In this document: positions 4,465-27,743 of the stretch, in pieces
Layout of the letters: every line of letters starts with the position of its first letter
Numbering within the stretch: the stretch's first letter is position 1
Assembly: GCA_017744365.1 (NCBI GenBank)
Contig: JAGIBL010000001.1
Span: 771,416 to 803,415, forward strand
Direction: 5' to 3'
Length of the DNA: 32,000 nucleotides
Origin: Nocardioidaceae bacterium
GTDB taxonomy: Bacteria; Actinomycetota; Actinomycetes; Propionibacteriales; Nocardioidaceae
The notes under the pieces: model-generated
Databases searched by the model: none
Told to the model about the DNA's origin: nothing
What the model saw: only the letters and a program-made list of their open reading frames with translations
Position numbers and translations under genes: made by a program

Positions 4465-4467
4465 GCG

Positions 4468-5394: not shown

Positions 5395-5485
5395 GTGGGG
5401 CCGGTTGAGCAGTCCCTCGCGCGCTCGCGCACGCCTACGTTCGTGGCGCGGCCGCACCCGGCGTCCGCTCGACGAACGGAACAGC

Positions 5486-9114: not shown

Positions 9115-9501
9115 ATGCTCACCCGCGCAGCGGCGGTCCTCGCGGCCGTCGTCACCGCCGTCGCGCTCGGCACGGCGCCCGCGCACGCCACCGTCCACGA
9201 GATCGTCGCCCAGTGGTGCTCGGGCCACCCGCACCTGGAGCCCCCGGGCCTCACCGGCGGGAGCCACGCGGACAACTTCGCGCAGCCGCTCAACGCCTCC
9301 GGCTTCATCAGCGGCGTGGTGCCGTTCAAGGACGGGTTCCTGATCCAGTTCAACTTCGACAACCCGAACGCGAAGGTGGTCCCGGTCGGCGAGCCGATCC
9401 CGATCGGCACCCTCAACGGCAAGCCGCTCTACCTGCAGCCGATCGCGCCCGACCCGTCGTTCCCGGCGTTCATGAACTGCCCGAAGCTGGGGACCGTGTA
9501 G
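9115..9501 (+). CDS. Small secreted protein of unknown function
   Basis: The 128-aa protein has a signal peptide MLTRAAAVLAAVVTAVALGTAPAHA followed by T. The mature part has two Cys, one near each end. GGAGG lies at 9096-9100. I recognised no family. Confidence 0.55.
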   Translation: MLTRAAAVLAAVVTAVALGTAPAHATVHEIVAQWCSGHPHLEPPGLTGGSHADNFAQPLNASGFISGVVPFKDGFLIQFNFDNPNAKVVPVGEPIPIGTLNGKPLYLQPIAPDPSFPAFMNCPKLGTV

Positions 9502-10546: not shown

Positions 10547-10547
10547 C

Positions 10548-10769
10548 TCAGGCCCCCAGCCGCTGCATCTCGGCGCGGAACGTCTGCTCGTCCCACGGCT
10601 TCCCGTCCGGCGCGGCCGACCCGTGCTCGTTGAGGCCGCGCACCAGCGCGGGCAGCTCGACGTGACCCTCGGCGAAGACCCGCTGGATCAGGCCGGCCAG
10701 CTTCTCCTCGTACGGCGTGGGCGGTTCGTCTCGCGTCTGCACCGCCTCCACGTACAACGGGAAGTCCAT
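10548..10769 (-). CDS. Small (73 aa) hypothetical protein, possibly a recombinase-like HTH-fold accessory protein
   Basis: SD GGAG lies 8 nt upstream. The stop lies 1 nt before the Rieske start. The C-terminal LVRGLNEHGSAAPDGKPWDEQTFRAEMQRLG resembles the LN..G....G..W motif of recombinase-domain helices. Confidence 0.55.
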   Translation of the reverse strand: MDFPLYVEAVQTRDEPPTPYEEKLAGLIQRVFAEGHVELPALVRGLNEHGSAAPDGKPWDEQTFRAEMQRLGA

Positions 10770-10791
10770 GTCGTTGCTCCGTTCACTCTCG

Positions 10792-11286
10792 TTAGGTGTC
10801 GGTGTCGAGGGCGACCAGCCCGTCGACGATGGCGAGGAAGGACGAGGCCCAGGCCGTGAACGAGGCCGGGCGGTGCTCGTGGACCGGCGCCGGCACCCCG
10901 TCGACGACGACGAAGACGCCGTTCGGGATCTGCCCGGCCAGCGTCTGCGCCGCGCTCAGGTCGGTGGCGGGGTCGGGCCGGGCCGCGACCACGAGGGCCG
11001 GCGCCGGCACCCGCGGCAGGTCGGCGGTCACGTCGCCGTACGCGCCGTCCGGTCCGGAGTCGGCGAGCACCAGGCCGCGGACCAGGTCCGGGCGCAGGAG
11101 AGCGACCCGTACGGCGATCACGCCGTCGTTCCCGGTGGCGACCAGGTGAGCCGGCCCGTCCAGGCCCGCGACCACCGACGCCACACGGGTCTCCAGGTCG
11201 TCCCCGGTCACCTCGACCACCCGGGTCGACCAGGAGAGCACGGGCGCGGAGCCTGCGCCGCGCAGCGCGATCACCTCGGGACTCAT
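10792..11286 (-). CDS. Short alpha/beta-hydrolase-fold-like protein (164 aa, no cap domain)
   Basis: SD GGAGGAG lies upstream and the gene ends in TAA. The core order matches the fold: LVATGNDGVIA at the nucleophile elbow, VLADSG, LVVAARPDP and PAPVHEHRP. Confidence 0.55.
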   Translation of the reverse strand: MSPEVIALRGAGSAPVLSWSTRVVEVTGDDLETRVASVVAGLDGPAHLVATGNDGVIAVRVALLRPDLVRGLVLADSGPDGAYGDVTADLPRVPAPALVVAARPDPATDLSAAQTLAGQIPNGVFVVVDGVPAPVHEHRPASFTAWASSFLAIVDGLVALDTDT

Positions 11287-11295
11287 CTCTCCTCC

Positions 11296-12054
11296 TCAGG
11301 CCATCACGAAGCCGCCGTCGACGACCACGGTCTGGCCGGTGACGTAGCGGGCGTCCTCGGAGAGCAGGAACGCGACCACCCCGGCGACGTCGCCGGGGGT
11401 CTGGTCGATGGGTAGCGCGCGGTGCTCGCGGTAGAGCGCGTACCGCTCGGCCGGCACGGACTCGGTGGCCTCGACCCGGGTCAGCCCGGGCGCGACCGCG
11501 TTGACCCGGACGCCGTCGGGTCCGGCGTCGCGAGCCATCCCGCGGGTCAGCGCGATCACCGCGCCCTTGGAGGCGACGTAGTGCGCGAGCCGGGGCGAGC
11601 CGTAGAGGGCGGCGTCCGAGGCCAGGTTGACGATGGCGCCGCGGTGACCGGCCAGCTGGTCGTAGAGCGCGGCGGAGACCAGCCAGGTGCCGCGCACGTT
11701 GACGTCGAGGACCCGGCTGAACGCCTCGTCCGGGATCTGCCAGAAGGGCAGGCCGCCGACCCCGTCGGCCAGGGCGGCGTTGTTGACCAGGCCGTGCGCG
11801 CCGCCCAGGTCCGCCACCGCCGCGGCCAGCGTGGCCACCGAGCCGGGATCGGTCACGTCGGTGTCGACCCGGGTCACCCGCACCCCGGCCGCGCTCAGGT
11901 GCTCGACCCCACGGGCGGCGATCTCGGCACGCAGCTCGGCGACGACCACGTGCGCACCGGCCCGGCCGAGGTGCTCGGCGACGGCCAGCCCGAGGCCGCG
12001 GCCCGCGCCGGTGACCACGTAGGTACGGGGCTCGGGGGAGGAGTGCGTGGACAT
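11296..12054 (-). CDS. SDR-family oxidoreductase
   Basis: It has VTGAGRGLGLA (TGxxxGxG), NNAA and the catalytic YVASK (YxxxK), with a PG..T tail. Confidence 0.9.
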   Translation of the reverse strand: MSTHSSPEPRTYVVTGAGRGLGLAVAEHLGRAGAHVVVAELRAEIAARGVEHLSAAGVRVTRVDTDVTDPGSVATLAAAVADLGGAHGLVNNAALADGVGGLPFWQIPDEAFSRVLDVNVRGTWLVSAALYDQLAGHRGAIVNLASDAALYGSPRLAHYVASKGAVIALTRGMARDAGPDGVRVNAVAPGLTRVEATESVPAERYALYREHRALPIDQTPGDVAGVVAFLLSEDARYVTGQTVVVDGGFVMA

Positions 12055-12066
12055 GGCGGCGTCTTC

Positions 12067-13017
12067 TCAGAGGTCGAGGGTGATCTCGGGGTCGAGGGCG
12101 CGGGAGACGCAGACGAACATCACGTTGCCGGCGTGCTTCTCGGACTCGGTGAGCAGGTAGTCGCGGTGGTCGACCCGGCCGGCGAGCACCTTGGTCTCGC
12201 AGGTGCCGCAGATGCCCTCGGTGCACGAGCTGGGCACGTCGATCCCGGCCTCGGCCAGCGCGGCGAGCGCGGTGCTCCCGGCCGGGACCCGGACCACCCG
12301 GCCCGAGGCCCGGCAGACGATCTCGAAGGGCTGGTCCGGGCCGTCGTGAGCGACCGGGGCGGGCGCCTTGAACCGTTCCAGCCGGAGCGTGCCCGGGTCG
12401 TCGAGCACCGCGGCGACCGCGGCCAGCAGCGGCTCCGGGCCGCAGGCGTAGACGAGGGTGCCCGGCTCGGGACCGGCGAGCAGCGCGGCCAGGTCGGGCG
12501 GGCCGCCGGCCTGGTCGTCGGCGTGCAGCCGGACCCGGTCGGGCCCGAGAGCGAGCAGCTCCTCGGTGAAGGCCATCGAGGCCGCGCTGCGCCCGGCGTA
12601 CAGGAGCTGCCAGTCGGCGCCGCGACGGGCCAGCTCGCGCGCCATCGCCAGGATCGGGGTGATCCCGATGCCACCCGCGACCAGCCGGTAGTGCTCGGCG
12701 GGCTCGAGGGCGAAGCTGTTGCGCGGTCCGGAGACCCGGACCAGGTCGCCCGGCCTGAGCGTGGCGTGCACGTACCGGCTGCCGCCGCGCGAGTCGGCCT
12801 CGTCGAGCACCGCGACGGTCCAGCCGTCGGGGTCCGCCGGGTCGGAGCAGAGCGAGTACTCGCGGGCCAGCCCGTTGGGCAGGTGCACGGTCAGGTGCGC
12901 GCCCGGCTCCCACGACGGCAGTGTGCCGCCCCTGGCGTCGCGGAACCGGACGGCGAGCACGCCGTCGGCTTCCCAGGTGAGCTGGGTGACCCGCACGTCG
13001 TGGCTGGGGGACTCCAT
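12067..13017 (-). CDS. PDR/VanB-type oxygenase reductase (FMN/NAD-binding FNR module plus C-terminal plant-type 2Fe-2S)
   Basis: It has REYSL (RxYS flavin motif), GGIGITP (NAD-binding) and the C-terminal CTEGICGTCETKV...VCVS cluster motif. SD GAAGGAG lies at 13030-13036 on the minus strand. Confidence 0.9.
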   Translation of the reverse strand: MESPSHDVRVTQLTWEADGVLAVRFRDARGGTLPSWEPGAHLTVHLPNGLAREYSLCSDPADPDGWTVAVLDEADSRGGSRYVHATLRPGDLVRVSGPRNSFALEPAEHYRLVAGGIGITPILAMARELARRGADWQLLYAGRSAASMAFTEELLALGPDRVRLHADDQAGGPPDLAALLAGPEPGTLVYACGPEPLLAAVAAVLDDPGTLRLERFKAPAPVAHDGPDQPFEIVCRASGRVVRVPAGSTALAALAEAGIDVPSSCTEGICGTCETKVLAGRVDHRDYLLTESEKHAGNVMFVCVSRALDPEITLDL

Positions 13018-13041
13018 CGAGCGCCTGCGCTCCTTCGCTGA

Positions 13042-13059
13042 TATCTAAGTTCTAAGATA
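13042..13059. promoter_or_regulatory. Operator-like AT-rich pseudo-palindrome / tandem TCTAAG repeat upstream of the Rieske-reductase operon
   Basis: The sequence is TATCTAAGTTCTAAGATA. TCTAAG occurs at 13044-13049 and 13051-13056. Fourteen of 18 positions are self-complementary. It lies 25-40 nt upstream of the minus-strand start at 13017. Confidence 0.35.
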
Positions 13060-13155: not shown

Positions 13156-13183
13156 TTGACACTAGGCATCTTATATCTAAGGT
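13156..13183 (+). promoter_or_regulatory. Sigma-70-type promoter candidate for module A (TTGACA, 16 nt, TAAGGT)
   Basis: TTGACA lies at 13156-13161. TAAGGT (TANNNT) lies at 13178-13183, 44 nt upstream of ATG 13227. It overlaps the pseudo-palindrome CTTATATCTAAG (13170-13181). Confidence 0.45.
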
Positions 13184-13226: not shown

Positions 13227-14414
13227 ATGCGTACCCGAACCCTCAGCGGCGGGCTCGCCCGCGTGACCGGAGCCGTGGCCGTGCTGCTGCTGGCGACCGG
13301 CGCGCTGGCGGCCTGCTCGGAGTCCTCCGACGACAAGCCCAGCACCGGCGGCAGCGGGAGCGGCGACGCCAGCGCGGCGATCGTCGCCGAGGCTCAGCAG
13401 GCCACCGACGCCCTCTTCGACACCGGCAGCGAGACGCCTCCGCCCGCGGACGGGCCGGCCGGGGTCAAGGGCAAGACGGTCTGGGTGGTCTCCTGCGGCC
13501 AGGCGGTCACCGGCTGCTCGCTGCTCACCGACGCGGCCGTGACCGCGAGCAAGCAGATCGGCTGGAAGACCACGCTGTGCGACGGCAACTTCAACGCCGG
13601 CGACCAGTACGGCAAGTGCATCCGGCAGGCGGTCGCGGCCGGCGCCGACGGGATCATCCTCAACTCGGTCGACTGCGTCGCGGTGACCCAGCCGCTCAAG
13701 GAGGCCAAGGCCGCCGGCGTCAAGGTGGCCGCGGTGAACACGTTCCCGTGCGACGGCGCGAACGCCGACCTGGCCACCATGGTGGTGCCCTCCACCGCGA
13801 CGCCGACCATCGACGCCTACGGCCAGGCCGCCGGCAAGGCACAGGCCGACTACCTGATCGCCACGAGCAAGGGCAAGGCGAAGGTGCTCAACTTCCGCTT
13901 CGTCGACAACTTCCTCGCGATCGAGGTGAACAAGGGCTTCGAGGCCGAGATGGCCACCTGCGGCACCTGCTCGGTGAAGAACACCGACATCACCCTGGCC
14001 GACTACGTCAATCCCTCGACGTTCGGGCAGAAGTCCAACGCCGCGCTGCTCTCCGCGCCGGACGCGACCGCGGTGCACGTGCCCTTCGACTCGTTCCTGA
14101 CCAGCGGCGTCGGGCAGGCGATCACCAGCGCCGGCCGGGCCGGCAAGCTCGACTCGATCGGGTTCAACGGCTTCGAGGCCAACCTCAACCTGATCCGCGA
14201 CGGCAAGGGCCAGACCGCCGCGCTGGGCGCCGACCAGGAGTGGGCCGGCTGGGCCGCCGCGGACACGATGAACCGGCTGCTTGCCGGCGCCGAGCCGGTC
14301 GCCGAGGGCATGGGCTTCAAAATGGTCGACGCGGACAAGAACCTGCCCTCCTCGGGCAGCTACCGCAGCGACATCGACTTCAAGGCGGCCTACGAGGCGG
14401 TCTGGTCGAAGTGA
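13227..14414 (+). CDS. ABC transporter substrate-binding lipoprotein, type I PBP (RbsB/LacI-like)
   Basis: SD GAAGGAG at 13213-13219 lies 7 nt before the ATG. It has a signal peptide with lipobox LAAC and a Ser/Gly-rich tether. The upstream 55 codons of the track ORF have no support. Confidence 0.85.
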   Translation: MRTRTLSGGLARVTGAVAVLLLATGALAACSESSDDKPSTGGSGSGDASAAIVAEAQQATDALFDTGSETPPPADGPAGVKGKTVWVVSCGQAVTGCSLLTDAAVTASKQIGWKTTLCDGNFNAGDQYGKCIRQAVAAGADGIILNSVDCVAVTQPLKEAKAAGVKVAAVNTFPCDGANADLATMVVPSTATPTIDAYGQAAGKAQADYLIATSKGKAKVLNFRFVDNFLAIEVNKGFEAEMATCGTCSVKNTDITLADYVNPSTFGQKSNAALLSAPDATAVHVPFDSFLTSGVGQAITSAGRAGKLDSIGFNGFEANLNLIRDGKGQTAALGADQEWAGWAAADTMNRLLAGAEPVAEGMGFKMVDADKNLPSSGSYRSDIDFKAAYEAVWSK

Positions 14415-15973
14415 CCGCGACGACGGTGGACCCGGCCTCGGCGGACGCGGAGGCGCCGGCGCGACTCCGGCTGGCCGGCGTGTCCAAGCGCTACGCCAGC
14501 ACCACGGCGCTGCACGAGGTCGGGCTCACCGTCGGCCGGGGCGAGATCCACGCCCTGCTGGGCGGCAACGGCTCCGGCAAGTCCACCCTCATCAAGATCG
14601 TCGCCGGGGTGGAGCGGGCCGAGCCCGGCGGCTCGCTGCACCAGGGCGACCAGGCCGCCGACCTGACCGGCTGGTCCGCCCGGGCCGCCCGCGAGGCCGG
14701 GATCCGGGTGGTGCACCAGGACATCGGCTACTTCCCGAGCCTGACCGTGGCCGACAACCTGGCCGCCGGCCACGGCTACCCGGTGGGCGCGTTCGGGAAC
14801 GTGCGCGACCGTCGCTGGCGCCGGCACACCGCCGAGGTGCTGGCCCGCTTCGACGTGGACGCGCGCCCGGAGACGCCGATGTCCGCGCTGCGGCCGGCGA
14901 CCCGGACCATGGTCGCCATCGGCCGCGCGCTGCAGGACGTCGACGAGGAGCGCTCGGGCGTGCTCATCCTCGACGAGCCCACCACCGCGCTGCCCCGGGG
15001 CGAGGTGGAGCACCTCTTCGCCGCGCTGCGTCGCTGTGCCGCGGCCGGCCACGCCATCGTCTTCGTCAGCCACCGGCTCTCCGAGGTGCTGGCCCTGTGC
15101 GAGAACGTCACCGTCCTGCGCGACGGCGAGCGGATCACCAGCCGCGCCACTGCGGGCCTCGACGAGCACGACCTCGCCGAGCTCGTCGCCGGCCGCCGGC
15201 TCGCGACCGCCAGCCACGGACGCGAAGCAGTCGCGGACGCGCCCTCGCTGGTGGCCGTCGAGGGCCTCGCCGCCGGCCCGCTGCAGGACGTCAGCCTGCG
15301 GGTCGCCGCCGGGGAGGTGCTCGGCATCGCCGGCCTGCTCGGCTCGGGGCGGAGCACCTTGCTGCGCACGCTCTTCGGCGACGTCGCCCCGGCCGCGGGC
15401 ACGGTCCGGCTCGACGGCGTCCCGGTGGCCTTCCGCAGTCCGCGCCAAGCCGTGCGCGCCGGGATCGCCTACGTGCCCGAGGACCGCGGTGGCGACGCGC
15501 TGTTCGGCTCGATGAGCCTGGACGAGAACCTCGCCGCGGTCGTGGTCGGCGACTACTGGCAGGGCGGCCTGTTGCGCCGGACCCGGCAGCGCCGCGAGTC
15601 CGCGCGGCTGGCCCGCGAGCTCGGCATCAAGACCGCCACCGTCACCCAGTCGCCGAACGAGCTGTCCGGCGGCAACCAGCAGAAGGCCGTGCTCGGTCGC
15701 TGGCTGCGCACCGAGCCGCGGCTGCTGCTGCTGGACAACCCCACCCAGGGCGTCGACGTCGGCGCCCGCGAGGACATCCACCGGCTGCTGCGCGACGCCG
15801 CCGGACGCGGCACCGCGGTCGTGGTGACCAGCGACGACTACGAGGAGCTGGCGCAGGTTTGCGACCGGGTCGTGGTGCTGCGCGAGGGCCGGGTCACCGG
15901 CTCGGTCGCCGCCGCCGACCTGAGCGCGGACCGGATCAGCCGCGAGATCTACGGAGAGCGAGCACCCCGATGA
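14411..15973 (+). CDS. CUT2-type ABC transporter ATP-binding protein (two fused ABC domains)
   Basis: The GTG start overlaps the SBP stop (GTGA). Domain 1 has Walker A GGNGSGKST and Walker B LILDEP. Domain 2 has GLLGSGRST, LSGGNQQK and LLLDNPTQGVD. Confidence 0.9.
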   Translation: MTATTVDPASADAEAPARLRLAGVSKRYASTTALHEVGLTVGRGEIHALLGGNGSGKSTLIKIVAGVERAEPGGSLHQGDQAADLTGWSARAAREAGIRVVHQDIGYFPSLTVADNLAAGHGYPVGAFGNVRDRRWRRHTAEVLARFDVDARPETPMSALRPATRTMVAIGRALQDVDEERSGVLILDEPTTALPRGEVEHLFAALRRCAAAGHAIVFVSHRLSEVLALCENVTVLRDGERITSRATAGLDEHDLAELVAGRRLATASHGREAVADAPSLVAVEGLAAGPLQDVSLRVAAGEVLGIAGLLGSGRSTLLRTLFGDVAPAAGTVRLDGVPVAFRSPRQAVRAGIAYVPEDRGGDALFGSMSLDENLAAVVVGDYWQGGLLRRTRQRRESARLARELGIKTATVTQSPNELSGGNQQKAVLGRWLRTEPRLLLLDNPTQGVDVGAREDIHRLLRDAAGRGTAVVVTSDDYEELAQVCDRVVVLREGRVTGSVAAADLSADRISREIYGERAPR

Positions 15974-16965
15974 CGCAGGCGCAGGCAGAGCGGCCCGACG
16001 GACTGCTGCGGATCACCACGGAGCGGTACGGGCTCGGCGTGCTCCTGGTTGCGGTGGTGGCGGTGTTCAGCACCCTGCCGCGCACCGGCGACCTGTTCGC
16101 CTCGCACGCCAACTTCACCGTGATCCTCGGCGGCGAGGTGCCGCTGTGCGTGATCGCGATCGCCTTCACGCTGCCGCTCGTGGTCGGCCAGCTCGACCTC
16201 AGCATCGCCTCGATCGCCGGGATGGCCTCGATCGCGGGGACCGCGGCGATGTCCCGGTTCGACCAGCCGCTGGTCGTCGCCATCCTCGTCGCGATCCTGT
16301 TCGGCGCGGCCGCCGGTGCCTTCAACGGCTTCCTCATCGCGGTGCTCGGCCTGGACTGCATCATCGTCACCCTCGCGGTGATGACGGTGATCGCCGGCCT
16401 GGTGCAGTGGTACACCGACGGCATCTCCATCAACACCGGCGTCTCCGCGACGCTGACCGACTTCGGCTCGCTGTCCTGGTTCGGGGTGCCGCGGATCGCC
16501 TTCCTGCTGGTGCTCGTGGTCGGGCTGGTCTGGTACGTCGTCGAGAAGACCCCGTTCGGCCGGCACCTGCGGATGATCGGCAGCAACCGGACCGCGGCCC
16601 GGCTGGTCGGCATCCCGGTGGTGTCCACCACGTTCGCGGTCTTCGTGCTCGCCGGGGCACTGGCCGGCGCCGGTGGCATGCTGCTCACCGCCCGGTCCGG
16701 CGGCGCCAACCCGCAGGAGGGCCCGGGCCTGCTGCTCGCGGCGCTGGCCGCGGTCTACCTGGGCGCGACCACGGTGCAGCCGGGCAAGTTCAACGTCGCC
16801 GGCACCGTCGTCGGCGTCTTCTTCCTGGCGCTGGCCGTCAGCGGGCTCACCCTCGCCGGGGTGCCGCCGTTCGTCAGCCAGCTCTTCGACGGCGGCGCCC
16901 TGCTGGTGGCGGTGGTGCTCTCCCGGTTCCTGGGCCGCAACCGCGTCGGCACGGTGGGGACCTGA
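15970..16965 (+). CDS. Monosaccharide-type ABC transporter permease
   Basis: It has an ATGA overlap with the ATPase. The 331-aa protein is multi-spanning and has GQLDLSIAS and MIGSNRTAARLVGI motifs. Confidence 0.9.
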   Translation: MTQAQAERPDGLLRITTERYGLGVLLVAVVAVFSTLPRTGDLFASHANFTVILGGEVPLCVIAIAFTLPLVVGQLDLSIASIAGMASIAGTAAMSRFDQPLVVAILVAILFGAAAGAFNGFLIAVLGLDCIIVTLAVMTVIAGLVQWYTDGISINTGVSATLTDFGSLSWFGVPRIAFLLVLVVGLVWYVVEKTPFGRHLRMIGSNRTAARLVGIPVVSTTFAVFVLAGALAGAGGMLLTARSGGANPQEGPGLLLAALAAVYLGATTVQPGKFNVAGTVVGVFFLALAVSGLTLAGVPPFVSQLFDGGALLVAVVLSRFLGRNRVGTVGT

Positions 16966-17867
16966 TGACGGCGGCCGGTGAAAACATCGTGTTGACGAGT
17001 GAATTCGACGCTCCGTACGCCTACAGCGCGATCACCGAGCGGCCCCACCGGCCGTTCCCCGGGGGCGCCCGGGTGGCGGTCTGGGTCGGCGTCAACGTGG
17101 AGGCCTACGCCTTCGGCCAGCAGGCGCTCAGCGTCGCTCCGCACGGGCCGTTCATCCCGCCCGACGCGATGAGCTACTCCTGGCGCGACTACGGCAGCCG
17201 GGTCGGGATCTTCCGGATGCTCGAGGCGATGAACGCGGCCGGCATCCGCGGCAGCGCGATCACCAACGCCGAGGTGCTGCACCGGTACCCGCCGGTGGTC
17301 GAGGCGATCCGGGCCGCCGGGTGGGACTGGGTCGCGCACGGGCGCAACAACTCGATCCTGCAGACCTCGATGGACCCCGACGCCGAGCGCGCCTACGTCG
17401 CCGAGGTCACCGCGACCTTCACCGAGGTGCTCGGGCTGGCGCCGCGCGGCTGGCTGGGCCCGGCCCGGGTCGCCACCCTGGCCACCAACCAGCTGCTCGC
17501 CGACGCCGGCTACTCCTACGCGCTGGAGTGGAACTGCGACGACCAGCCCTTCGACTTCGACCTCGAGCGCGGCCGGCTCGTCTCGGTGCCCTACTCGACC
17601 GAGGTCAACGACATCATCGCGTTCGTCTTCCGTGGCTCCTCGGGCGCGGAGTTCCGGCAGCTGGTCCTCGACCACGTCGGCACCCTGCGCGCCCAGGGCG
17701 AGCGCTGGCCCTCGGTCCTCGGGCTCAGCGTGCATCCCTTCCTGTGCGGGCAGCCCGCGAAGCTGCCGTACCTGATGGAGGCGCTGGCCGAGGTGGCCGC
17801 GCACCCGGACGTGTGGATGACCACCAGCGACGAGATCGCCGCCTGGTACCGGGAGGAGGGCCGTTGA
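16965..17867 (+). CDS. Polysaccharide-deacetylase-fold protein, PuuE (allantoinase)-like subgroup, copy A
   Basis: It has a TGATG overlap with the permease. It carries YSWRDYGSRVGIFR, the WVAHGRNN, PRGWLGP and VHPFL motifs, and is a clear paralog of 28409..29305. Confidence 0.8.
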   Translation: MTAAGENIVLTSEFDAPYAYSAITERPHRPFPGGARVAVWVGVNVEAYAFGQQALSVAPHGPFIPPDAMSYSWRDYGSRVGIFRMLEAMNAAGIRGSAITNAEVLHRYPPVVEAIRAAGWDWVAHGRNNSILQTSMDPDAERAYVAEVTATFTEVLGLAPRGWLGPARVATLATNQLLADAGYSYALEWNCDDQPFDFDLERGRLVSVPYSTEVNDIIAFVFRGSSGAEFRQLVLDHVGTLRAQGERWPSVLGLSVHPFLCGQPAKLPYLMEALAEVAAHPDVWMTTSDEIAAWYREEGR

Positions 17868-18622
17868 GCGCCTCCTTCGCGGGCCGGCACGCGGTGGTCA
17901 CCGGGGCCGCCAGCGGCATCGGGCGCCGTACGGCGGAAGCACTCGCCGAGCGCGGCGCCACGGTGGCCTGCCTGGACCGCGACGGTGACCGGCTCGAGGA
18001 GGTGGTGGCCGCCCTGGGCGGCGCCGCCACCGGGCACGTCGCCGACGTGACCAGCTCGGCGCAGGTCGACGCCGCCTTCGACGCGGCCGCCGCCACCGCA
18101 TCGCTGGACCTGGTGGTCAACATCGCCGGCGCCGCCTTGATGGGCGCGGTGCACGAGCTCTCCGACGAGGACTGGGCCGACTGCCTGGGCCGGAACCTGA
18201 CCGGCACCTTCTACTGCTGTCGCGCCGCGGTCCGGCACCTCGGCGCGCGCGGCGGGGTGATCGTGAACATGTCGTCCTCGCTGGGCCGGATCGCCGCGCC
18301 GCGGTTCGCGGCCTACAGCGCGGCCAAGGCGGGCGTGCGCGCGCTGACCATGCAGATGGCCCGCGACTACGGCCCGGCGATCCGGGTGAACTCGGTCTCG
18401 CCGGCGGCCACCGACACCCCGGGCGTCCGGTACGCCATCGAGTCCGCTGCGGACCCGGCGGCGGTGGAGGCCGAGATCGCCGGCGGCAACCACATCGCCG
18501 GCCGGCTGGCCACCACCGACGAGGTGGTCGCCGGGATCCTCTTCGCCGCCTCGGCGGAGTCGTCGTTCATGTTCGGCCACGACCTGGTGCTCTGCGGCGG
18601 CCAGACCACGGTCGCGTACTGA
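17864..18622 (+). CDS. SDR-family oxidoreductase
   Basis: The TTG start follows SD GGGAGGAGGG (17851-17860) and overlaps the upstream stop. It has VTGAASGIG, the catalytic YSAAK and SVSPAATDTP. Confidence 0.85.
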   Translation: MSASFAGRHAVVTGAASGIGRRTAEALAERGATVACLDRDGDRLEEVVAALGGAATGHVADVTSSAQVDAAFDAAAATASLDLVVNIAGAALMGAVHELSDEDWADCLGRNLTGTFYCCRAAVRHLGARGGVIVNMSSSLGRIAAPRFAAYSAAKAGVRALTMQMARDYGPAIRVNSVSPAATDTPGVRYAIESAADPAAVEAEIAGGNHIAGRLATTDEVVAGILFAASAESSFMFGHDLVLCGGQTTVAY

Positions 18623-18644
18623 GTCGCGGACGGAGAGGGAAGAG

Positions 18645-19337
18645 ATGCCAGAACCCTGGGACCACCTACTCGGCGAGCGCGACCGGGCCGTCCTCGCGGC
18701 CAGTGGCTACGGGCAGTCCCGCAAGCTCCGGTCGCCGGCCGCGGTGCTGGTCATCGACCTGACGTTCGACTTCCTCGGCGACCGGCCGGAGCCGATCCTG
18801 GAGTCGGTCACCCGGTTCCCGAACAGCTGCGGCGCCGAGGGCTGGGCCGCGGCCGAGCGGCTCGCGCCGGTGCTGGCCGCGGCGCGCGCGAGCGACGTCC
18901 CGGTCCTGTACACCACCCGCAGCACCGAGCACCCGGTGCTGGAGGAGCTGACCTGGGGTGGCAAGCAGACCAACGCCGGCCGCGCGGCGATGGGGGAGAG
19001 CGCGGCGACCGGCTTCCCGCCCGCCATCGCGCCGCAGCCCGGCGACACCGTGATCGAGAAGACCAAGCCGAGCGCGTTCTTCGACACCCCGCTGCGGCAG
19101 TACCTGGTGCTGCTCGGGATCCGGCAGCTCTTCGTCGCCGGCGCCACCACCAGCGGCTGCGTGCGGGCCACCGTCGTGGACGCGTTCTCGCACGGGTTCC
19201 GCACCGCGGTGCTGGCCGACTGCGTCGCGGACCGGATCGAGGCCTCGCACGCGATCGCCCTGTTCGACCTGCAGGCCAAGTACGCCGACCTGACCGACGC
19301 GGCCACGGCGACCGGCGCGCTGGGGGAGGGCCGGTGA
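18645..19337 (+). CDS. Isochorismatase-like cysteine hydrolase, N-carbamoylsarcosine amidase / maleamate amidohydrolase-type (copy 1)
   Basis: The D-K-C triad context is VLVIDLTFDF, KTKPSAFF and GATTSGCVRATVVDA. Confidence 0.85.
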   Translation: MPEPWDHLLGERDRAVLAASGYGQSRKLRSPAAVLVIDLTFDFLGDRPEPILESVTRFPNSCGAEGWAAAERLAPVLAAARASDVPVLYTTRSTEHPVLEELTWGGKQTNAGRAAMGESAATGFPPAIAPQPGDTVIEKTKPSAFFDTPLRQYLVLLGIRQLFVAGATTSGCVRATVVDAFSHGFRTAVLADCVADRIEASHAIALFDLQAKYADLTDAATATGALGEGR

Positions 19338-20332
19338 GCTCCCTCGCGCTCAGCTACGGCGGCCTGCTCTACCTGGACCGGACCCTGCCGCTCTACCTCG
19401 ACCAGGTCCGCCCGGCCGGGATCGACCTGACCTACGTACCGTTCGACTCGCCCGGTGACCTGTTCCGGCGGCAGTGCCAGTACGCGCAGTTCGAGGTCTC
19501 CGAGCTCTCCGCCTCCAGCTACCTGGCGATGCTCAGCCGCGGCGACGACCGGTTCGTGGCGCTGCCGCTGCCGGTCTCCCGGAACTTCCGGCACAGCCAG
19601 GTCTACGTGCACACCGACGCCGGCATCGCCCGTCCCGAGGACCTGCGCGGCCGCCGCGTCGGCATCCTGGAGTACCAGATGACCGCGGCGCTGTGGATCC
19701 GCGGCTTCCTCGCCGACGACCACGGTGTCACCCCCGACCAGGTCGACTGGCACACCGGCGGCCTGGTCGAGCCGGCCTGGGCCGAGCGCCTCGAGCTGGA
19801 CCTTCCCGAGGGGGTGCGGCTGACGCCGATCCCGGCCGGGGCGACGCTGGAGGCGATGCTCGAGGCCGGCGAGCTGGACGCGCTGGTCACCGTGCAGCCG
19901 CCGCAGCGCTTCGGCCAGGTGCCGCAGCTGCGCCGGCTCTTCGAGGACGCGACCGCGGTCGAGCGCGACTACCACCGGCGCACCGGGATCTTCCCGATCA
20001 TGCACCTGGTCGTCGTACGGCGTGACGTCTACGAGCGGCACCGCTGGGTGGCGCTCGCGCTCTACGAGGCCTTCGCGCGGGCCAAGGCGCAGGGGATGGG
20101 GCGGCTGCGCGCGATCACGGGCCTGGCCGTCGGGCTGCCCTTCCTGGCCGCCGCCCTCGCCGAGGTCGACGAGGCCTTCGCCGGCGACGCCTTCCCGTAC
20201 GGCGTCGAGCCGAACCGGCTCACGCTGCAGAAGCTGAGCGACTACGCCTTCGAGCAGGGCATCGCGGCCCGCCGGGTGCCGGTCGAGGAGATGTTCGCCC
20301 CCGAGACCTACCAGGAGCCGATCGCCCTATGA
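19334..20332 (+). CDS. PhtD-like protein (family annotated as 4,5-dihydroxyphthalate decarboxylase; cytosolic periplasmic-binding-protein fold)
   Basis: It has a GTGA overlap and no signal peptide. It carries the motifs FEVSELSASSYL, FVALPLPVSRNFRHSQVYV, LRGRRVGILEYQMTAALWIRG and IFPIMH. Confidence 0.7.
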   Translation: MSSLALSYGGLLYLDRTLPLYLDQVRPAGIDLTYVPFDSPGDLFRRQCQYAQFEVSELSASSYLAMLSRGDDRFVALPLPVSRNFRHSQVYVHTDAGIARPEDLRGRRVGILEYQMTAALWIRGFLADDHGVTPDQVDWHTGGLVEPAWAERLELDLPEGVRLTPIPAGATLEAMLEAGELDALVTVQPPQRFGQVPQLRRLFEDATAVERDYHRRTGIFPIMHLVVVRRDVYERHRWVALALYEAFARAKAQGMGRLRAITGLAVGLPFLAAALAEVDEAFAGDAFPYGVEPNRLTLQKLSDYAFEQGIAARRVPVEEMFAPETYQEPIAL

Positions 20333-21897
20333 GCACGCGCAAGCCGCGGATCGCCGTCGTCGCCGGTCCGACCGCGACGATCCTGAACACCCCGCCGCTC
20401 GTGGCCGGCCCGCTGCGCCCGCAACGGCTCGGCGCCGCGACGACGGTGTGGGTCGAGCACCTGAGCGCGCACCCGATGGAGAGCGACCTCGGCGCCCGGC
20501 AGGCCGGACCCGACGGCTACCTGACCGAGGACGGCTCGGTCAGCCCCGAGCGGACCGCCGAGACCGACGTCGCGGTGGTCGCGGTCAGGCTCGACGCCGG
20601 CGCGCTCTACCCGCTGCCGTACACCCCGCGCCCGGCCGACGGCTGGGAGCCGGGCGGCTGGGACGACCCGCGGCAGACGTTCTTCCCGGACGCCTCCCGG
20701 GCCTACGAGGAGATCGACGCGCTGGTCGAGATGGACGGCCGCGACGGCACCCTGAGCGCCCTGGCCGACTTCGTGCACGTCCGGGTGCTGCCCTCGGCCG
20801 GGCGGACCAGCCCGCCGGACTGCGAGCGCCTCGGCCACGACTACTTCCCGTACTGGCCGCCGCACCGCCGCGGCGAGCCCGACCGCGGCGCCCTGGCCCG
20901 GCTGACCAACGAGCTCGGCGCCCTGCTGGCCGGAGGCGAGGTGGACGCGGTCCAGTACCTCGAGGGCAGCGCCAGCATCGAGGAGTCGCTGTACTGGCTG
21001 GCGCTCACCCTCGACACCGACCGGCCCGTCGTCGGGCACTGCGCCCAGGTGCCGCACCAGGCGCTCGGCTCGGACGGCCCGCGCAACATCGTCGACGGCG
21101 TCCTGTACGTCGCCTCCGGTGCCGCGCTCGACGAGGACGGCCGCGACCGGGTCGGCCCGGTGCTGGTCGCCGACGGCCAGGTCTTCGCCGCCCGCGAGGT
21201 GGCCAAGACCGACGGCCGGTACGGCGGCTACCGCGCGACCGGCGGACTCGGCGGCGTGGTCGGAGCCGTGCACAGCTACCGCGGCGTGCACGTGGACCAC
21301 CTCAGCACCCGGCGGCACACCCGGACCTCCGAGCTGACCGTCGCCCGCCTGCCCGCGCAGGTGCGCCACGTGCACGGCCGGCTCGCGACCGGCCTGCGGG
21401 TCGGCACCACGACCGTGAAGGACGCGGCCGGACGGCTGCGCGAGGACGCGGTGCCGTCCGTGCTGGTGCACAAGTACGGCCGCTACACCGGCGATGCCGG
21501 CACCGACTCGGCCCGCGAGCGGGCGGCGCTGTGGGGCTGGATCGAGGCCTACCTGGACGGCGCCACCCGGCCGCTGGGCATCGTGCTGGAGGGCAACCCG
21601 TCGTACGGGCACGCCGACCCGTGGGAGGAGGCTGTGCTCACCACCGCCCTGCACGCCGGCGTCCCGGTGGTGCGCGCCGGGCGTGGCAACGGGTCCGGCT
21701 TCGTGCGGATCCCGCCGATGCCGTTCGCGGCGGCCAGCAACCTGACCGCGGCCAAGGCCCGGATCCTGCTGACCGCGGCGCTGCTCAAGCTGGGCTCGCT
21801 GGAGCCGGCGGCCGACCCGCGGAACCCGACCGAGGCCGAGCGGCAGCGCACCGCCGACCAGCTCGCCGCCTACCAGGAGCTCTTCGATGAGCACTGA
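20329..21897 (+). CDS. Divergent, enlarged asparaginase/glutaminase-fold protein (522 aa)
   Basis: It has an ATGA overlap. The blocks run in the same order as type II asparaginase: RIAVVAGPTATI, YLEGSASIEESLYWLALTLDTDRPVV, LGSDGPRNIVDGV, REVAKTD, GIVLEGNPSYG and NLTAAKARILLTAAL. Confidence 0.75.
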   Translation: MSTRKPRIAVVAGPTATILNTPPLVAGPLRPQRLGAATTVWVEHLSAHPMESDLGARQAGPDGYLTEDGSVSPERTAETDVAVVAVRLDAGALYPLPYTPRPADGWEPGGWDDPRQTFFPDASRAYEEIDALVEMDGRDGTLSALADFVHVRVLPSAGRTSPPDCERLGHDYFPYWPPHRRGEPDRGALARLTNELGALLAGGEVDAVQYLEGSASIEESLYWLALTLDTDRPVVGHCAQVPHQALGSDGPRNIVDGVLYVASGAALDEDGRDRVGPVLVADGQVFAAREVAKTDGRYGGYRATGGLGGVVGAVHSYRGVHVDHLSTRRHTRTSELTVARLPAQVRHVHGRLATGLRVGTTTVKDAAGRLREDAVPSVLVHKYGRYTGDAGTDSARERAALWGWIEAYLDGATRPLGIVLEGNPSYGHADPWEEAVLTTALHAGVPVVRAGRGNGSGFVRIPPMPFAAASNLTAAKARILLTAALLKLGSLEPAADPRNPTEAERQRTADQLAAYQELFDEH

Positions 21898-21928: not shown

Positions 21929-22474
21929 TCAGCCGGCCTCTTCGTCGCGGACCCGCTCGGCGAACTCCAGGGACACCTCGAGGCGGGAGAGCAGGGTGGC
22001 CAGCTGCTGCTGCTCGGAGGCGGTCAGCCCGCCGAGCATCTTGTTCTGCTCGGCGAAGTGCCGCTCGACGACGAAGTCGATGCGCTGGTGGCCGGCCTTG
22101 GTGAGCTGGACGTAGACGATCCGGCGGTCCTTGGGGTCGCGCACCCGCTCGACCAGGCCGTCGCGCTCGAGCCGGTCGATGCGCTGGGTCAGGCCGCCGG
22201 TGCTGATGAGCCCGACCTGGGCGAGCTGCCCGGCGGTTCGGCGGTAGTCGGGGGCGCTGCGGCGCAGCGAGGCGAGCACGTCGAAGGCCGCCATGGTCAG
22301 GTCGAACTCGGCAAGCACCTCGCTGACCAGGCCGCTGTAGCGGATGTCGCAGCGGTGCAGCCGGCCGAGCACGCCGATGCTGCTCACGTCGAGCGCGGGA
22401 GCCTCCCGGTTCCACTGCTCGATGATCATGTCGACCAGGTCCGTCGGACGTCGGTGCGAGGTCTTCGGCGCCAT
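21929..22474 (-). CDS. MarR-family transcriptional regulator
   Basis: The winged-helix core is AGQLAQVGLISTGGLTQRIDRLERDGLVERVRDPKDRRIVYVQLT. ATG 22474 lies about 5 nt after GGGAG. An alternative start is GTG 22480, as in the ORF track. Confidence 0.9.
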   Translation of the reverse strand: MAPKTSHRRPTDLVDMIIEQWNREAPALDVSSIGVLGRLHRCDIRYSGLVSEVLAEFDLTMAAFDVLASLRRSAPDYRRTAGQLAQVGLISTGGLTQRIDRLERDGLVERVRDPKDRRIVYVQLTKAGHQRIDFVVERHFAEQNKMLGGLTASEQQQLATLLSRLEVSLEFAERVRDEEAG

Positions 22475-22513
22475 CTCCACTCCCTCAGCTCTAAGTATTC
22501 AACGATGAGGATA

Positions 22514-22531
22514 GTCGCACGCTCGTGCGAC
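22514..22531. promoter_or_regulatory. Perfect inverted repeat GTCGCACG-CT-CGTGCGAC in the marR/permease divergent region
   Basis: I read it directly: 8-bp arms and a 2-nt spacer, 40 nt upstream of marR ATG 22474. Confidence 0.35.
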
Positions 22532-22588
22532 CGCTCACGCCCGATGCTTCGGGACAACGGAATTCCCACAGGGATCGATGGTTCCCCC

Positions 22589-22605
22589 AGTTGCTTCGAC
22601 CTAAG
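22589..22605 (+). promoter_or_regulatory. Conserved 17-nt box AGTTGCTTCGACCTAAG (copy 1)
   Basis: It matches 24832-24848 at 15 of 17 positions. It ends 31 nt before ATG 22636. Confidence 0.4.
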
Positions 22606-22635
22606 AGTTGGAGACCGACGAGTTGGAGGTTGGGC

Positions 22636-23433
22636 ATGAGCATCGACACCCGCAGGCTGGCACGGCGGGCGACCCAGGTGGGCAAGCCGCTGGCGCTGTT
22701 CACGGTGCTGGTCGCGATCTGGCAGGTCGTCGTCGACAAGGGCCTGGTCCCGACCGTCGCCCTCGCCTCGCCGAGCGAGGTCCTCGACTACATCGTCACC
22801 CAGCGCGCCCAGTTGTGGACCAACAGCCAGGCCACGATCAAGGAGATCGTGCTGGCCTTCGCGATCGCCTTCGTGGTGGGCGTGGTGCTGGCCATCCTCA
22901 TCAAGGAGTTCCAGATCCTGCACGACGCGCTGCTGCCGCTGCTGGTGGTCACCCAGCTGGTGCCGTCGGTCGCGATCGCGCCGCTGCTGGTGCTGATCCT
23001 CGGCTTCGGCGACGCTCCCAAGATCGCGACCGCGGCGGTGATCGCGTTCTTCCCGATCCTCATCAACACCGTCGCCGGGCTGGACAACGTGGAGAAGGAG
23101 GCGATCGACCTCACCCGCAGCCTGCGCGCCTCCCGGATCCAGACGCTGCGCTACCTCGAGCTGCCCTCGGCGATCCCCTACATGTTCGCCGGCACCCGGA
23201 TCGGCATCACCCTCAGCGTGATCGGCGCGGTCGTCGGCGAGTTCGTCACCGCCGACAAGGGCCTGGGCTACCTGATCCTGCAGGGCAGCTCGACGCTGGA
23301 CCCCACCCTCGTCTTCGCCTCGCTGGTGGTGCTGGCCGGGATCGGGCTGCTGCTCTTCGGTGCCGTCCGGGTCGTGGAGTACTTCGTCGTCCCGTGGAAC
23401 CGGGCCCCGGCCCAGCGAGGAGGCCGGTCATGA
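22636..23433 (+). CDS. NitT/TauT-family ABC transporter permease
   Basis: ATG 22636 lies 6 nt after GGAGG (22625-22629). The 265-aa protein is a multi-spanning BPD-type membrane protein. The upstream 37 codons of the track ORF lie in AT-rich non-coding DNA. Confidence 0.9.
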   Translation: MSIDTRRLARRATQVGKPLALFTVLVAIWQVVVDKGLVPTVALASPSEVLDYIVTQRAQLWTNSQATIKEIVLAFAIAFVVGVVLAILIKEFQILHDALLPLLVVTQLVPSVAIAPLLVLILGFGDAPKIATAAVIAFFPILINTVAGLDNVEKEAIDLTRSLRASRIQTLRYLELPSAIPYMFAGTRIGITLSVIGAVVGEFVTADKGLGYLILQGSSTLDPTLVFASLVVLAGIGLLLFGAVRVVEYFVVPWNRAPAQRGGRS

Positions 23434-24212
23434 GCGCGCTCATCTCGATCACCGGCGTGGCCAAGCGCTACGCCACCGACCGCGGCGAGGTGGTCGCGGT
23501 CCAGGACGTCGACCTCGAGGTGCGGCAGGGCTCGTTCGTCGCGCTGCTCGGGCCGAGCGGCTGCGGGAAGAGCACGCTGCTGCGGATGGTGGCCGGCCTC
23601 GACGCGCCGAGCGAGGGCCGGATCCTGCTCGACGGCCAGGACGTGGTGGCGCCGACGGCGATGGTCGGCTTCATGTTCCAGCACTCGCTGCTGTTCCCGT
23701 GGCGCTCGGTGATCGAGAACGTGCTGCTGCCGGTCGACATAGCCCGGGGCAAGCGGGCCGAGCACCTGGACCGCGCGCACGCGCTGCTGGCCAGCGTCGG
23801 CCTGGAGGAGTTCGCCCACCACCGCCCGAACGAGCTCTCCGGCGGCATGCAGCAGCGGGCGGCGCTGTGCCGGGCGCTGATCGTCGACCCGCCGGTGCTG
23901 CTGCTCGACGAGCCCTTCGGCGCGCTGGACAGCATCACCCGCGAGGAGCTCAACGACCTGCTGCTGCAGATCTGTCACGAGTCGGGGAAGACCACGCTGC
24001 TGGTCACCCACGACGTCGAGGAGGCCGTCTACCTGGCCGACGAGGTGGTGGTGATGTCGAGCCGGCCCGGGCGGATCTCCGACGTCGTCGGCGTCGAGCT
24101 CGGCTATCCCCGCGACACCGAGACCCGCAACCTGCCCGAGTTCCGGGCGCTGGCGACCCGGCTGCGCAAGGGGCTGGGGATCGCGCACCGGCAGGGGAGG
24201 GCGGCCCGGTGA
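23430..24212 (+). CDS. NitT/TauT-family ABC transporter ATP-binding protein
   Basis: It has an ATGA overlap. It carries GPSGCGKST, LSGGMQQRAALCRAL and LLLDEPFGALD. Confidence 0.9.
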   Translation: MSALISITGVAKRYATDRGEVVAVQDVDLEVRQGSFVALLGPSGCGKSTLLRMVAGLDAPSEGRILLDGQDVVAPTAMVGFMFQHSLLFPWRSVIENVLLPVDIARGKRAEHLDRAHALLASVGLEEFAHHRPNELSGGMQQRAALCRALIVDPPVLLLDEPFGALDSITREELNDLLLQICHESGKTTLLVTHDVEEAVYLADEVVVMSSRPGRISDVVGVELGYPRDTETRNLPEFRALATRLRKGLGIAHRQGRAAR

Positions 24213-24832
24213 CGGAGGCCCTCGTCCCGGCCAGGACCGCGCTGGTGATCGTGGACATGCAGAACGACTTCCTGCATCCCGACGGGGCGCACGGACGCGC
24301 CGGCCTCGACATCGGCGCGGGCCTGGCGCTGCTGCCGGCGCTCAACGACTTCGTCGCGCAGTGCCGCCGGGTGGGCGTGCTCCCGATCTACCTGCAGGAG
24401 GTGCTGACCCGGCACACCAGCATGGCCAACCTGGTCGCGCAGTGGGGCCGCTGGGACACCCTCGTGGTCGAGGGCACCTGGGGCGCGCAGCTGCACGACG
24501 ACCTGGTCCCGCGCGAGCCGGACGAGCCGCTGGTGGTGAAGAGCAACTACGACGGCTTCCAGGACACCGTGCTCGACCTGGTGCTCAAGGCGCACGGGAT
24601 CAGCACGCTGCTCTTCGCCGGCGTCGGCACCAACGTGTGCGTGGAGACGACCGCCCGGCACGCCTACGGGCTGGGCTACCGGGTGGTGACCCTGGAGGAC
24701 CTCTGCGCCGCCTCCAGCGTGCCCGAGCACGAGGCCGCGATCTGGAACCTGGGCACCTACTTCGGCGAGGTACGGCGCAGCGCCGAGATCGTCGCGGACT
24801 GGGCCTTGACACCTCAAGTGACTCATCTCTAA
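24209..24832 (+). CDS. Isochorismatase-like cysteine hydrolase (copy 2, general PncA/RutB/BiuH-like type)
   Basis: It has a GTGA overlap. The D-K-C triad context is LVIVDMQNDF, VVKSNYDGF and GVGTNVCVETTARHA. It ends in TAA, which lies inside the TCTAAG motif. Confidence 0.85.
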   Translation: MTEALVPARTALVIVDMQNDFLHPDGAHGRAGLDIGAGLALLPALNDFVAQCRRVGVLPIYLQEVLTRHTSMANLVAQWGRWDTLVVEGTWGAQLHDDLVPREPDEPLVVKSNYDGFQDTVLDLVLKAHGISTLLFAGVGTNVCVETTARHAYGLGYRVVTLEDLCAASSVPEHEAAIWNLGTYFGEVRRSAEIVADWALTPQVTHL

Positions 24833-24835
24833 GTT
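24806..24835 (+). promoter_or_regulatory. Internal promoter candidate inside module B (TTGACA, 18 nt, TAAGTT)
   Basis: GCCTTGACAC is identical to the 10-mer at 13153-13162. The -10-like TAAGTT at 24830-24835 includes the TAA stop of the upstream gene. Confidence 0.4.
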
Positions 24836-24848
24836 GTTTAGACCTAAG
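24832..24848 (+). promoter_or_regulatory. Conserved 17-nt box AGTTGTTTAGACCTAAG (copy 2)
   Basis: It matches 22589-22605 at 15 of 17 positions. It ends 31 nt before GTG 24879. Confidence 0.4.
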
Positions 24849-24878
24849 TAATTCTCCGAACGAACGAGGGTGACAAGC

Positions 24879-27732: not shown

Positions 27733-27743
27733 GAGGAACACCC

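Follow-up and report, generated by a model that had tools for sequence, protein, structure and literature searches.

We analysed a stretch of 32,000 nucleotides (the window) from a Nocardioidaceae bacterium (contig JAGIBL010000001.1, positions 771,416 to 803,415), a soil actinobacterium with a genome of 4.76 Mb. Our subject is module A, a string of eight co-directional genes on the + strand at 13227–21897 that encodes an ATP-binding cassette (ABC) importer and a set of downstream enzymes; it is followed by a second gene set, module B. As the G+C content of the window is ~73%, genes were called from third-position GC frame plots and inspection of start-codon context. The genes of module A are as follows:

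13227–14414, + strand: lipoprotein substrate-binding protein (SBP) of the CUT2 type, matching Peripla_BP_4
14411–15973, + strand: fused two-domain ABC ATPase of CUT2 architecture, with two ABC_tran domains
15970–16965, + strand: AraH/RbsC-like permease, matching BPD_transp_2
16965–17867, + strand: PuuE-like protein of the polysaccharide-deacetylase fold, from TIGR03212 and PDB matches
17864–18622, + strand: classical short-chain dehydrogenase/reductase (SDR), matching Pfam adh_short
18645–19337, + strand: isochorismatase-like cysteine hydrolase (IHL) of the NicF/CSHase type, from PDB matches
19334–20332, + strand: PhtD-like cytosolic protein of the periplasmic-binding-protein fold, a 4,5-dihydroxyphthalate decarboxylase homologue (PDB 9jp7)
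20329–21897, + strand: asparaginase-fold protein of 522 aa, from its fold match to type II asparaginases

Adjacent genes overlap by 1–4 nt at six of the seven junctions (GTGA, ATGA, TGATG, TTGA, GTGA and ATGA), and the remaining junction is a 22-nt gap with a GGAGAGGGAAG ribosome-binding site. No promoter-like site emerged from a consensus scan of the string, and the three terminator-like sites found there, compared with 1.7 expected from shuffled sequence, are at chance level. Module A is a real, translationally coupled operon, and the coordinates that a preliminary description of this DNA had given for eight coupled genes proved exact. Its fold assignments were likewise upheld for all eight genes by Pfam, NCBIfam and PDB sequence searches. 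No riboswitch or other Rfam family was found in the window.

We defined a CUT2 importer as a fused ATPase with two nucleotide-binding domains, a BPD_transp_2 permease and a Peripla_BP_1/4 binding protein encoded in one operon, and the first three genes of module A have this architecture. The SBP matches Peripla_BP_4 (PF13407) at 87.1 bits and carries a lipobox, LAAC, at Cys30 (read from the translation), and the permease matches PF02653 (BPD_transp_2) at 137.8 bits; these domain searches agree with the earlier view of a CUT2 importer made up of a type I periplasmic-binding lipoprotein, a two-domain ATPase and a permease. The best matches of the ATPase were AraG, YtfR and RbsA, at 350–391 bits, all under the equivalog cut-offs. 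All sugar equivalogs in NCBIfam fell below cut-off (AraG, 391 versus 689 bits; best match of the SBP, 18 versus 420 bits), and the named sugar importers were ruled out as the identity of this system by these curated cut-offs.

The ATPase and permease resemble those of any CUT2 system; the SBP does not. Among 5.8 billion proteins we found 44 relatives of the SBP at ≥32% identity, after which the score falls from 179 to 80 bits. Above 42% identity there was no relative in any of 300 sampled genomes of the same family, 29 of them from the same genus. Plasmid searches returned distant relatives only. By sequence comparison, the SBP is a member of a rare, divergent clade. The clade alignment contains six invariant or near-invariant cysteines (C90, C97, C150, C175, C245 and C248), which suggests three probable disulfides, unusual among ribose-binding-protein-like binders. 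Structural modelling of the SBP, proposed in the preliminary description as a route to its ligand, succeeded in part: a confident AlphaFold model was obtained (predicted local distance difference test score, pLDDT, 90.9), but the fold search returned only generic ribose and glucose binders and no pointer to a ligand, with ribose, glucose and arabinose binders matched at the fold level only (14–21% identity). The CUT2 systems RbsABC, AraFGH and YtfQRT therefore share with module A the three-gene architecture, the fused ATPase, the BPD_transp_2 permease and the Peripla_BP_4 fold, but differ from it in the binding protein, which in module A has this low identity, a rare clade of its own and the three probable disulfides. 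They also differ in genomic company, as the partners of the module A clade are oxygenases and hydrolases and never sugar enzymes.

The close relatives of module A lie on six independent metagenomic contigs, with SBPs 52–59% identical to that of module A; the truncated locus L001 was judged by its ATPase. They encode the following:

L091 (SBP 59% identical): IHL, 2-oxoglutarate (2OG) oxygenase, SDR, SBP, ATPase, permease, PuuE-like protein and a 567-aa asparaginase-fold protein
L090 (SBP 52% identical): class II aldolase, regulator, 2OG oxygenase, SDR, SBP, ATPase, permease, amidase, PuuE-like protein and amidase, with a NitT-type ABC importer in addition
L095 (SBP 55% identical): NitT ABC importer, DUF1989 protein, class II aldolase, SBP, ATPase, permease, PuuE-like protein (58% identical to the module A copy), amidase and PhtD-like protein
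L094 (SBP 57% identical): MarR regulator, extradiol dioxygenase, hydrolase, cupin, two SDRs, thiamine pyrophosphate (TPP) enzyme, reductase, HTH_62 protein, Rieske oxygenase, PhtD-like protein, SBP and ATPase
L002/L003 (SBP 58% identical): the same Rieske block as L094; CUT2 genes and PuuE-like protein; SDR, IHL, PhtD and asparaginase-fold proteins; part of module B
L001 (SBP off the contig; ATPase 79% and other genes 77–89% identical): permease, SDR, IHL, PhtD and asparaginase-fold proteins, MarR regulator and module B permease

Partners of the importer were counted in a presence/absence matrix of seven related loci, selected at the same SBP identity and again with L001 judged by its ATPase. 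The module A SDR, the PuuE-like gene, the PhtD homologue and a NitT-type ABC importer were each present in five of the seven. An amide hydrolase was found in six (of the asparaginase fold in four, of the amidase-signature type in two) and an oxygenase in five (Rieske in three, 2OG in two). None of the seven loci contained a sugar kinase, an isomerase or a glycosidase. The order SDR, IHL, PhtD, asparaginase-fold protein is kept in L001 and L002 at 57–80% identity. The pairing of a CUT2 importer with amide hydrolases had been singled out as unusual; its conserved synteny in six other contigs supports the view that it is not accidental. Relatives of the SBP at 35–42% identity lie in other clusters of aromatic-acid catabolism, with FAD monooxygenases, fumarylacetoacetate-type hydrolases, Amidohydro_2 proteins and aldehyde dehydrogenases nearby, and a relative in this identity range on a Streptomyces chartreusis plasmid lies beside a gentisate-type gene set. 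Given these neighbourhoods, recruitment of the transporter for a non-sugar substrate is the supported option.

The enzymes of module A could be placed in families with differing precision. The PuuE-like protein scored 108.6 bits against TIGR03212 (cut-off, 424.6), and its PDB matches were PuuE (3cl6, 5e-23) and HpPgdA (3qbu, 5e-4). The window contains no urate or allantoate genes. We rejected a true allantoinase PuuE on the score and on the missing ureide-pathway neighbourhood, so that membership holds at the fold or superfamily level only. The absence of this gene from L001, and a copy in L002 that is nearer to the module B paralogue, had suggested that it might be a lineage-specific extra copy; this idea was dropped because L095 holds an orthologue (58% identical) in the same place after the permease. 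By analogy with HxnM (PMC9304392), the PuuE-like protein may be a hydrolase that opens cyclic amide or imide rings. For the neighbouring SDR, orthologues 57–80% identical lie beside the transporter in L001, L002, L090 and L091.

The IHL matched NicF (3ot4, 7.6e-28) and CSHase (3.5e-25) in the PDB at similar E-values, as well as 4l07. Its triad D38-K139-C172 aligns with those of NicF 3ot4 and 4l07, and the segment GATTSGCVRA matches, so that it has the Asp-Lys-Cys triad, with the Cys within a T-S-G-C-V segment, that characterises the NicF/CSHase group. Its scores against the NCBIfam equivalogs were low (BiuH, the best, 50.8 versus 370 bits; RutB, 45.8 versus 378). Since the triad and this segment match the maleamate amidohydrolase NicF, which is a half-amidase, a half-amidase role suits the IHL and is the one we propose.

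The PhtD-like protein aligned with 9jp7, a solved 4,5-dihydroxyphthalate decarboxylase, over residues 14–327 on 33–345 (E = 1e-71, ~45% identity); this is the full-length homology to a characterised member that defines the PhtD/OphC family. Orthologues 59–80% identical are present in L001, L002, L094 and L095. A phthalate-family Rieske oxygenase and reductase are encoded next to module A but are only distantly related. The host has a second PhtD-like gene (45% identical; C7:1000693–1001691). It shares its operon with genes for an aminotransferase, a DUF6282 protein, an amidase-signature enzyme and a NitT-type ABC importer, which is another non-phthalate context for the family.

The last gene of module A had been described as encoding a giant asparaginase-fold protein. 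We found instead that 522 aa is a normal length in a large uncharacterised family whose members have 510–585 aa; 382 clusters of this family were scored, and relatives occur in at least 515 species genomes, all ≤48% identical to the module A protein. Type II L-asparaginases have ~330 aa and the catalytic residues T12, T89-D90 and K162. In an alignment of 15 members of the long family, T17 (in GPxxTI), S214 (in EGS), K293 and D249-G250 are invariant. Through T17 and K293, the family retains the nucleophile Thr and the Lys that type II asparaginases use; relative to those enzymes, T89 is replaced by S214 and D90 by Ala, and ~170 extra residues follow the first strand. The AlphaFold model (pLDDT 73.9) superposes on both domains of type II asparaginase, with a target-normalised Foldseek TM-score of ~0.77. 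The protein scored 47.9 bits against TIGR00520 (cut-off, 314), and a true type II L-asparaginase (TIGR00520 / PF00710+PF17763) was rejected on this score and the catalytic residues; the fold is the same and the family is different.

Within 10 kb of asparaginase-fold family members, at 81 loci, the neighbours included SBP_bac_5 (21), amidase-signature enzymes (17), PhzF (16), nitrile hydratase alpha (13), RidA (12) and Peripla_BP_6 (11). These neighbours vary, yet repeatedly include amide metabolism, with amide or peptide binding proteins among them, and the family is predicted to consist of amide hydrolases of varied substrate. A second family member in the host (51% identical; C12:338216–339775) lies beside RidA and a nitrile hydratase alpha/beta pair, which suggests that the family may serve nitrile hydratases as an amidase partner. 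On an Agrobacterium vitis plasmid (CP146243.1, 133363–135063; our locus L111), a long asparaginase-fold gene stands last in a string whose other products are a NitT-type ABC importer, a flavin reductase and two LLM/NtaA-type flavin monooxygenases; the plasmid is conjugative and comes from a grape gall strain.

Module A is flanked by the following features:

9470–13017, − strand: divergent operon (Pfam matches), with the next five genes
12067–13017, − strand: PDR-type reductase
11296–12054, − strand: SDR of the divergent operon
10792–11286, − strand: small alpha/beta-like protein
10548–10769, − strand: 73-aa HTH_62-like protein
9470–10546, − strand: Rieske/VanA_C oxygenase
13038–13049 and 13170–13181, no strand assigned: two copies of the 12-nt box CT(G/T)ATATCTAAG, from a repeat search of the 209-nt divergent control region
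21929–22480, − strand: MarR-family regulator (Pfam), convergent with module A and divergent from module B
22525–29979, + strand: module B (Pfam and NCBIfam matches)

Orthologues of the divergent operon lie beside CUT2 and PhtD genes in L002 and L094 (Rieske, 60–66% identical; reductase, 50%; SDR, 55–56%). The nearest solved relatives of the Rieske protein are phthalate 4,5-dioxygenases (7fhr, 1e-18; 7fjl), in a weak match that covers the N-terminal 170 residues only. The two boxes are 132 nt apart in the control region common to the Rieske operon and module A, and the 9-mer ATATCTAAG occurs at only these two sites in the genome. The CT(G/T)ATATCTAAG boxes are a probable operator pair for a local regulator. 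The MarR gene has an orthologue 84% identical in the same place in L001.

In L094 and L002, genes for an extradiol dioxygenase, a hydrolase, a cupin, an SDR and a TPP enzyme are contiguous with the Rieske, reductase, PhtD and CUT2 genes. The host orthologues of this extradiol-dioxygenase/TPP-enzyme module (51–74% identical) are on another contig (C8:242005–247498; 7006–12499 of locus L098), in an operon that encodes an extradiol dioxygenase, an Asp_DH-like protein, an alpha/beta hydrolase, a cupin, an SDR, a TPP enzyme, an aldehyde dehydrogenase and an FAD monooxygenase, with a divergent MarR gene of its own. Since these genes are contiguous in the relatives but lie on this other contig in the host, the proposed pathway is split over at least two loci in the host genome. 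As judged from orthology and gene order, the divergent Rieske operon and the remote module belong to the conserved unit of module A, a connection that the preliminary description had missed. Module B encodes a NitT/TauT-type ABC importer, two IHLs, a DUF1989 protein, a cytosine-deaminase-like amidohydrolase, a second PuuE-like protein and a class II aldolase-type protein. Comparative genomics had been proposed as a test of whether the two modules are conserved together, and parts of module B do stand beside parts of module A in L001, L002/L003, L090 and L095.

The upstream part of the window (1–9055) encodes another CUT2-like ATPase and permease, together with an Abhydrolase_3 esterase, a protein of the metallo-beta-lactamase fold and a pair of MmyB-type regulators; it also includes an operon for an aldo-keto reductase, Dak1, Dak2 and BKACE. 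In the locus L097, a BKACE gene is found next to that for an SBP 38% identical to the module A protein.

Literature searches on the combination of dihydroxyphthalate decarboxylase, isochorismatase and asparaginase, and on kynurenate gene clusters, found no described pathway that matches. The lower nicotinate pathway of Aspergillus nidulans uses the SDR HxnW to turn a hydroxylactam into a cyclic imide, which the cyclic imidase HxnM, a relative of PuuE and HpPgdA, cleaves to a half-amide; ammonia is then freed by the amidase HxnN, and the 2OG oxygenase HxnY belongs to the regulon as well (PMC9304392). Module A likewise combines an SDR, a putative ring opener related to PuuE and HpPgdA and a putative ammonia-releasing amidase; the likeness is one of families and logic. 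The relatives L090 and L091 carry a 2OG oxygenase beside the SDR, and the constant partners of the importer clade (an oxygenase, one SDR, a PuuE-like protein and an amide hydrolase) match the Hxn set. The Hxn system differs in being fungal, in its unlinked gene clusters and in having no ABC importer; its amidase is FAAH-like rather than an IHL or asparaginase-fold enzyme, and it includes no PhtD-type decarboxylase and no Rieske oxygenase.

Among bacterial systems, the phthalate 4,5-dioxygenase pathway shares with the present unit an alpha-only phthalate-family Rieske oxygenase with a PDR-type reductase, a dehydrogenase, and a decarboxylase at ~45% identity to 9jp7. It differs in that the Rieske protein here is distant (E = 1e-18, N-terminal half), the dehydrogenase here is an SDR, and a CUT2 importer comes with the enzymes, as do three hydrolases for amides or imides. 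With the lower pathway of bacterial nicotinate and nicotine degradation (NicF/Ami; PDB 3ot4 and 4l07), the IHL has in common its triad and an identical active-site segment, and a proposed position downstream of ring opening; the module A unit contains no NicX (2,5-dihydroxypyridine dioxygenase), no NicD deformylase and no maleate isomerase. Within the host's bacterial family, the closest characterised pathway in which several hydrolases act on an N-heterocycle is that for lumichrome (vitamin B2) catabolism, encoded by the lum operon of Nocardioides simplex (Sinha et al. 2025, PMC12746152). Its logic is similar: hydrolases strip a cyclic ureide/imide ring, and decarboxylation of the heterocycle, a Rieske oxygenase, an extradiol dioxygenase, a cupin, a TPP enzyme and transport genes follow. 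The enzymes that define lum are the self-sufficient P450 LumU, the fused xanthine-oxidase-type molybdenum hydroxylase LumJ, the split TPP decarboxylase LumK/L and the alpha/beta Rieske oxygenase LumCD. None of these families was found among the window genes or at C8:235000–254900, and the host TPP enzyme is a single 545-aa protein. Membership in the lum operon family was rejected on the absence of these defining enzymes, in a comparison by enzyme families.

We consider it probable, though well short of certain, that module A provides uptake and nitrogen release within a larger catabolic system of patchy distribution, whose substrate is a small carboxylated ring compound with a cyclic amide or imide nitrogen and not a sugar. 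A Rieske oxygenase with a reductase and an SDR is the usual route to a hydroxylated (hetero)aromatic carboxylate, and the PhtD homologue implies such a hydroxylated aromatic or heteroaromatic carboxylate at some stage. The genes and their coupling, the folds they encode, the retained catalytic residues and the recurring co-occurrence are observed; from these we infer the order of the steps and every substrate. The lipoprotein SBP and the CUT2-type transporter would import the compound, and the divergent Rieske oxygenase and reductase, with the SDR, would hydroxylate and dehydrogenate it. The PuuE-like protein would then open the C-N bond of a cyclic imide or lactam to give a half-amide, and the NicF-type IHL and the long asparaginase-fold enzyme, the latter supplying a second amide hydrolysis, would convert amide groups to carboxylates and ammonia. 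The PhtD homologue would take a carboxyl group off the hydroxylated (hetero)aromatic acid, and the remaining ring would be handled by the extradiol dioxygenase, hydrolase, cupin and TPP-enzyme module on the other contig. The most specific substrate that would use every enzyme is plausibly an aromatic or pyridine-type ortho-dicarboximide or dicarboxamide, or a pyridone- or quinolinone-carboxylate. The strongest form of the proposal is doubtful: that module A, the Rieske operon and the remote module constitute an undescribed bacterial pathway for a carboxylated cyclic-imide or lactam heteroaromatic, for example a pyridine- or benzo-dicarboximide or a pyridone- or quinolinone-carboxylate, in which the importer clade has switched to aromatic or N-heterocyclic acids, the PuuE-type enzyme is a cyclic imidase and the asparaginase-fold enzyme is a half-amide or amide hydrolase. 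Module A is a new combination of known enzyme families and not a new kind of system.

Several observations weigh against a single catabolic system for such a ring compound. The SBP fold is that of ribose and glucose binders; in L001, the closest relative, the SDR gene follows that of the permease with no PuuE-like gene in between; and the close relatives are all uncultured. The enzymes considered here all score below the equivalog cut-offs of characterised families, and activities are therefore assigned at the family level only. The gene set also varies among the relatives (Rieske or 2OG oxygenase, asparaginase-fold or amidase-signature enzyme, PhtD missing in L090 and L091), so that substrates may differ between loci.

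This variation in module content is what would be expected if module A were a mosaic, co-transcribed but stitched together from modules (importer and SDR; PuuE and IHL; PhtD and asparaginase-fold protein) that scavenge nitrogen from unrelated amides, as are the many unrelated contexts of the asparaginase-fold family and the presence, in other amide-related loci of the host, of paralogues of both the PhtD-like and the asparaginase-fold gene. The conserved order of the last four genes in L001 and L002 at 57–80% identity, the retention of the same functional partners by a rare SBP clade over seven loci, and the one pair of boxes, unique in the genome, within the control region that the two operons share all argue against it, and we consider a mosaic very unlikely. 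Of the two readings put forward in the preliminary description, recruitment of the transporter for a non-sugar substrate is favoured by the rare SBP clade and its oxygenase/hydrolase or aromatic-acid cluster contexts. The other, a glycosylated, ribosylated or polyol-linked amide, ureide or nucleoside-like compound whose sugar or polyol part is read by the SBP while the hydrolases act on the nitrogenous part, found no support: the seven related loci lack any glycosidase, nucleosidase, phosphorylase, sugar kinase or isomerase, the SBP is 14–21% identical to sugar binders and belongs to its own rare clade, and more distant clade members sit with gentisate-type aromatic genes. We regard such a conjugate as quite unlikely, in spite of the CUT2 architecture and ribose-binding-protein fold, the SDR beside the transporter (in five of the seven loci), the upstream operon for dihydroxyacetone kinase, aldo-keto reductase and BKACE, the BKACE gene beside the 38% identical SBP in L097, and the precedent of Stadtman's riboflavin route, in which the ribityl chain is kept during hydrolysis of the pyrimidine ring (PMC12746152).

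A narrower version of the favoured reading, in which a carboxylated ring compound is still the substrate, takes the pathway to be one of ortho-dicarboximide or dicarboxamide degradation (phthalimide/phthalamate-like or pyridine-dicarboximide-like). A PuuE-like imidase, a half-amidase (IHL, asparaginase-fold), a phthalate-family Rieske oxygenase with PDR-type reductase, an SDR diol dehydrogenase and a PhtD-type decarboxylase would together lead to a catechol acid. This version accommodates the phthalate 4,5-dioxygenases as nearest solved relatives of the Rieske protein with a PDR-type reductase alongside, the ~45% identity of the PhtD homologue to 9jp7, the NicF-matching active-site segment of the IHL, the occurrence of a PuuE-like and IHL pair twice in the window, and the contiguity of the Rieske, PhtD and SBP genes in L094. 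It is nevertheless unlikely, as the Rieske match is low-scoring and confined to the N-terminal 170 residues, L090 and L091 have a 2OG oxygenase and are without PhtD, and the TPP enzyme is left with no role.

Automatic annotation would label module A a ribose or sugar transporter operon. Genomic context indicates that a small CUT2 SBP clade as a whole serves aromatic and N-heterocyclic catabolism instead, which calls for caution in annotation and provides a handle for finding the ligand. The value of module A lies in testable hypotheses rather than a solved function: the operon is a defined setting for testing the long asparaginase-fold family, a non-phthalate PhtD relative and PuuE-like enzymes as bacterial cyclic imidases. 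If true, the proposal would give a first assigned function to an asparaginase-fold family found in >500 bacterial species, within the kind of pathway that returns the ring nitrogen of vitamins, alkaloids and pesticide residues to ammonia in soil.

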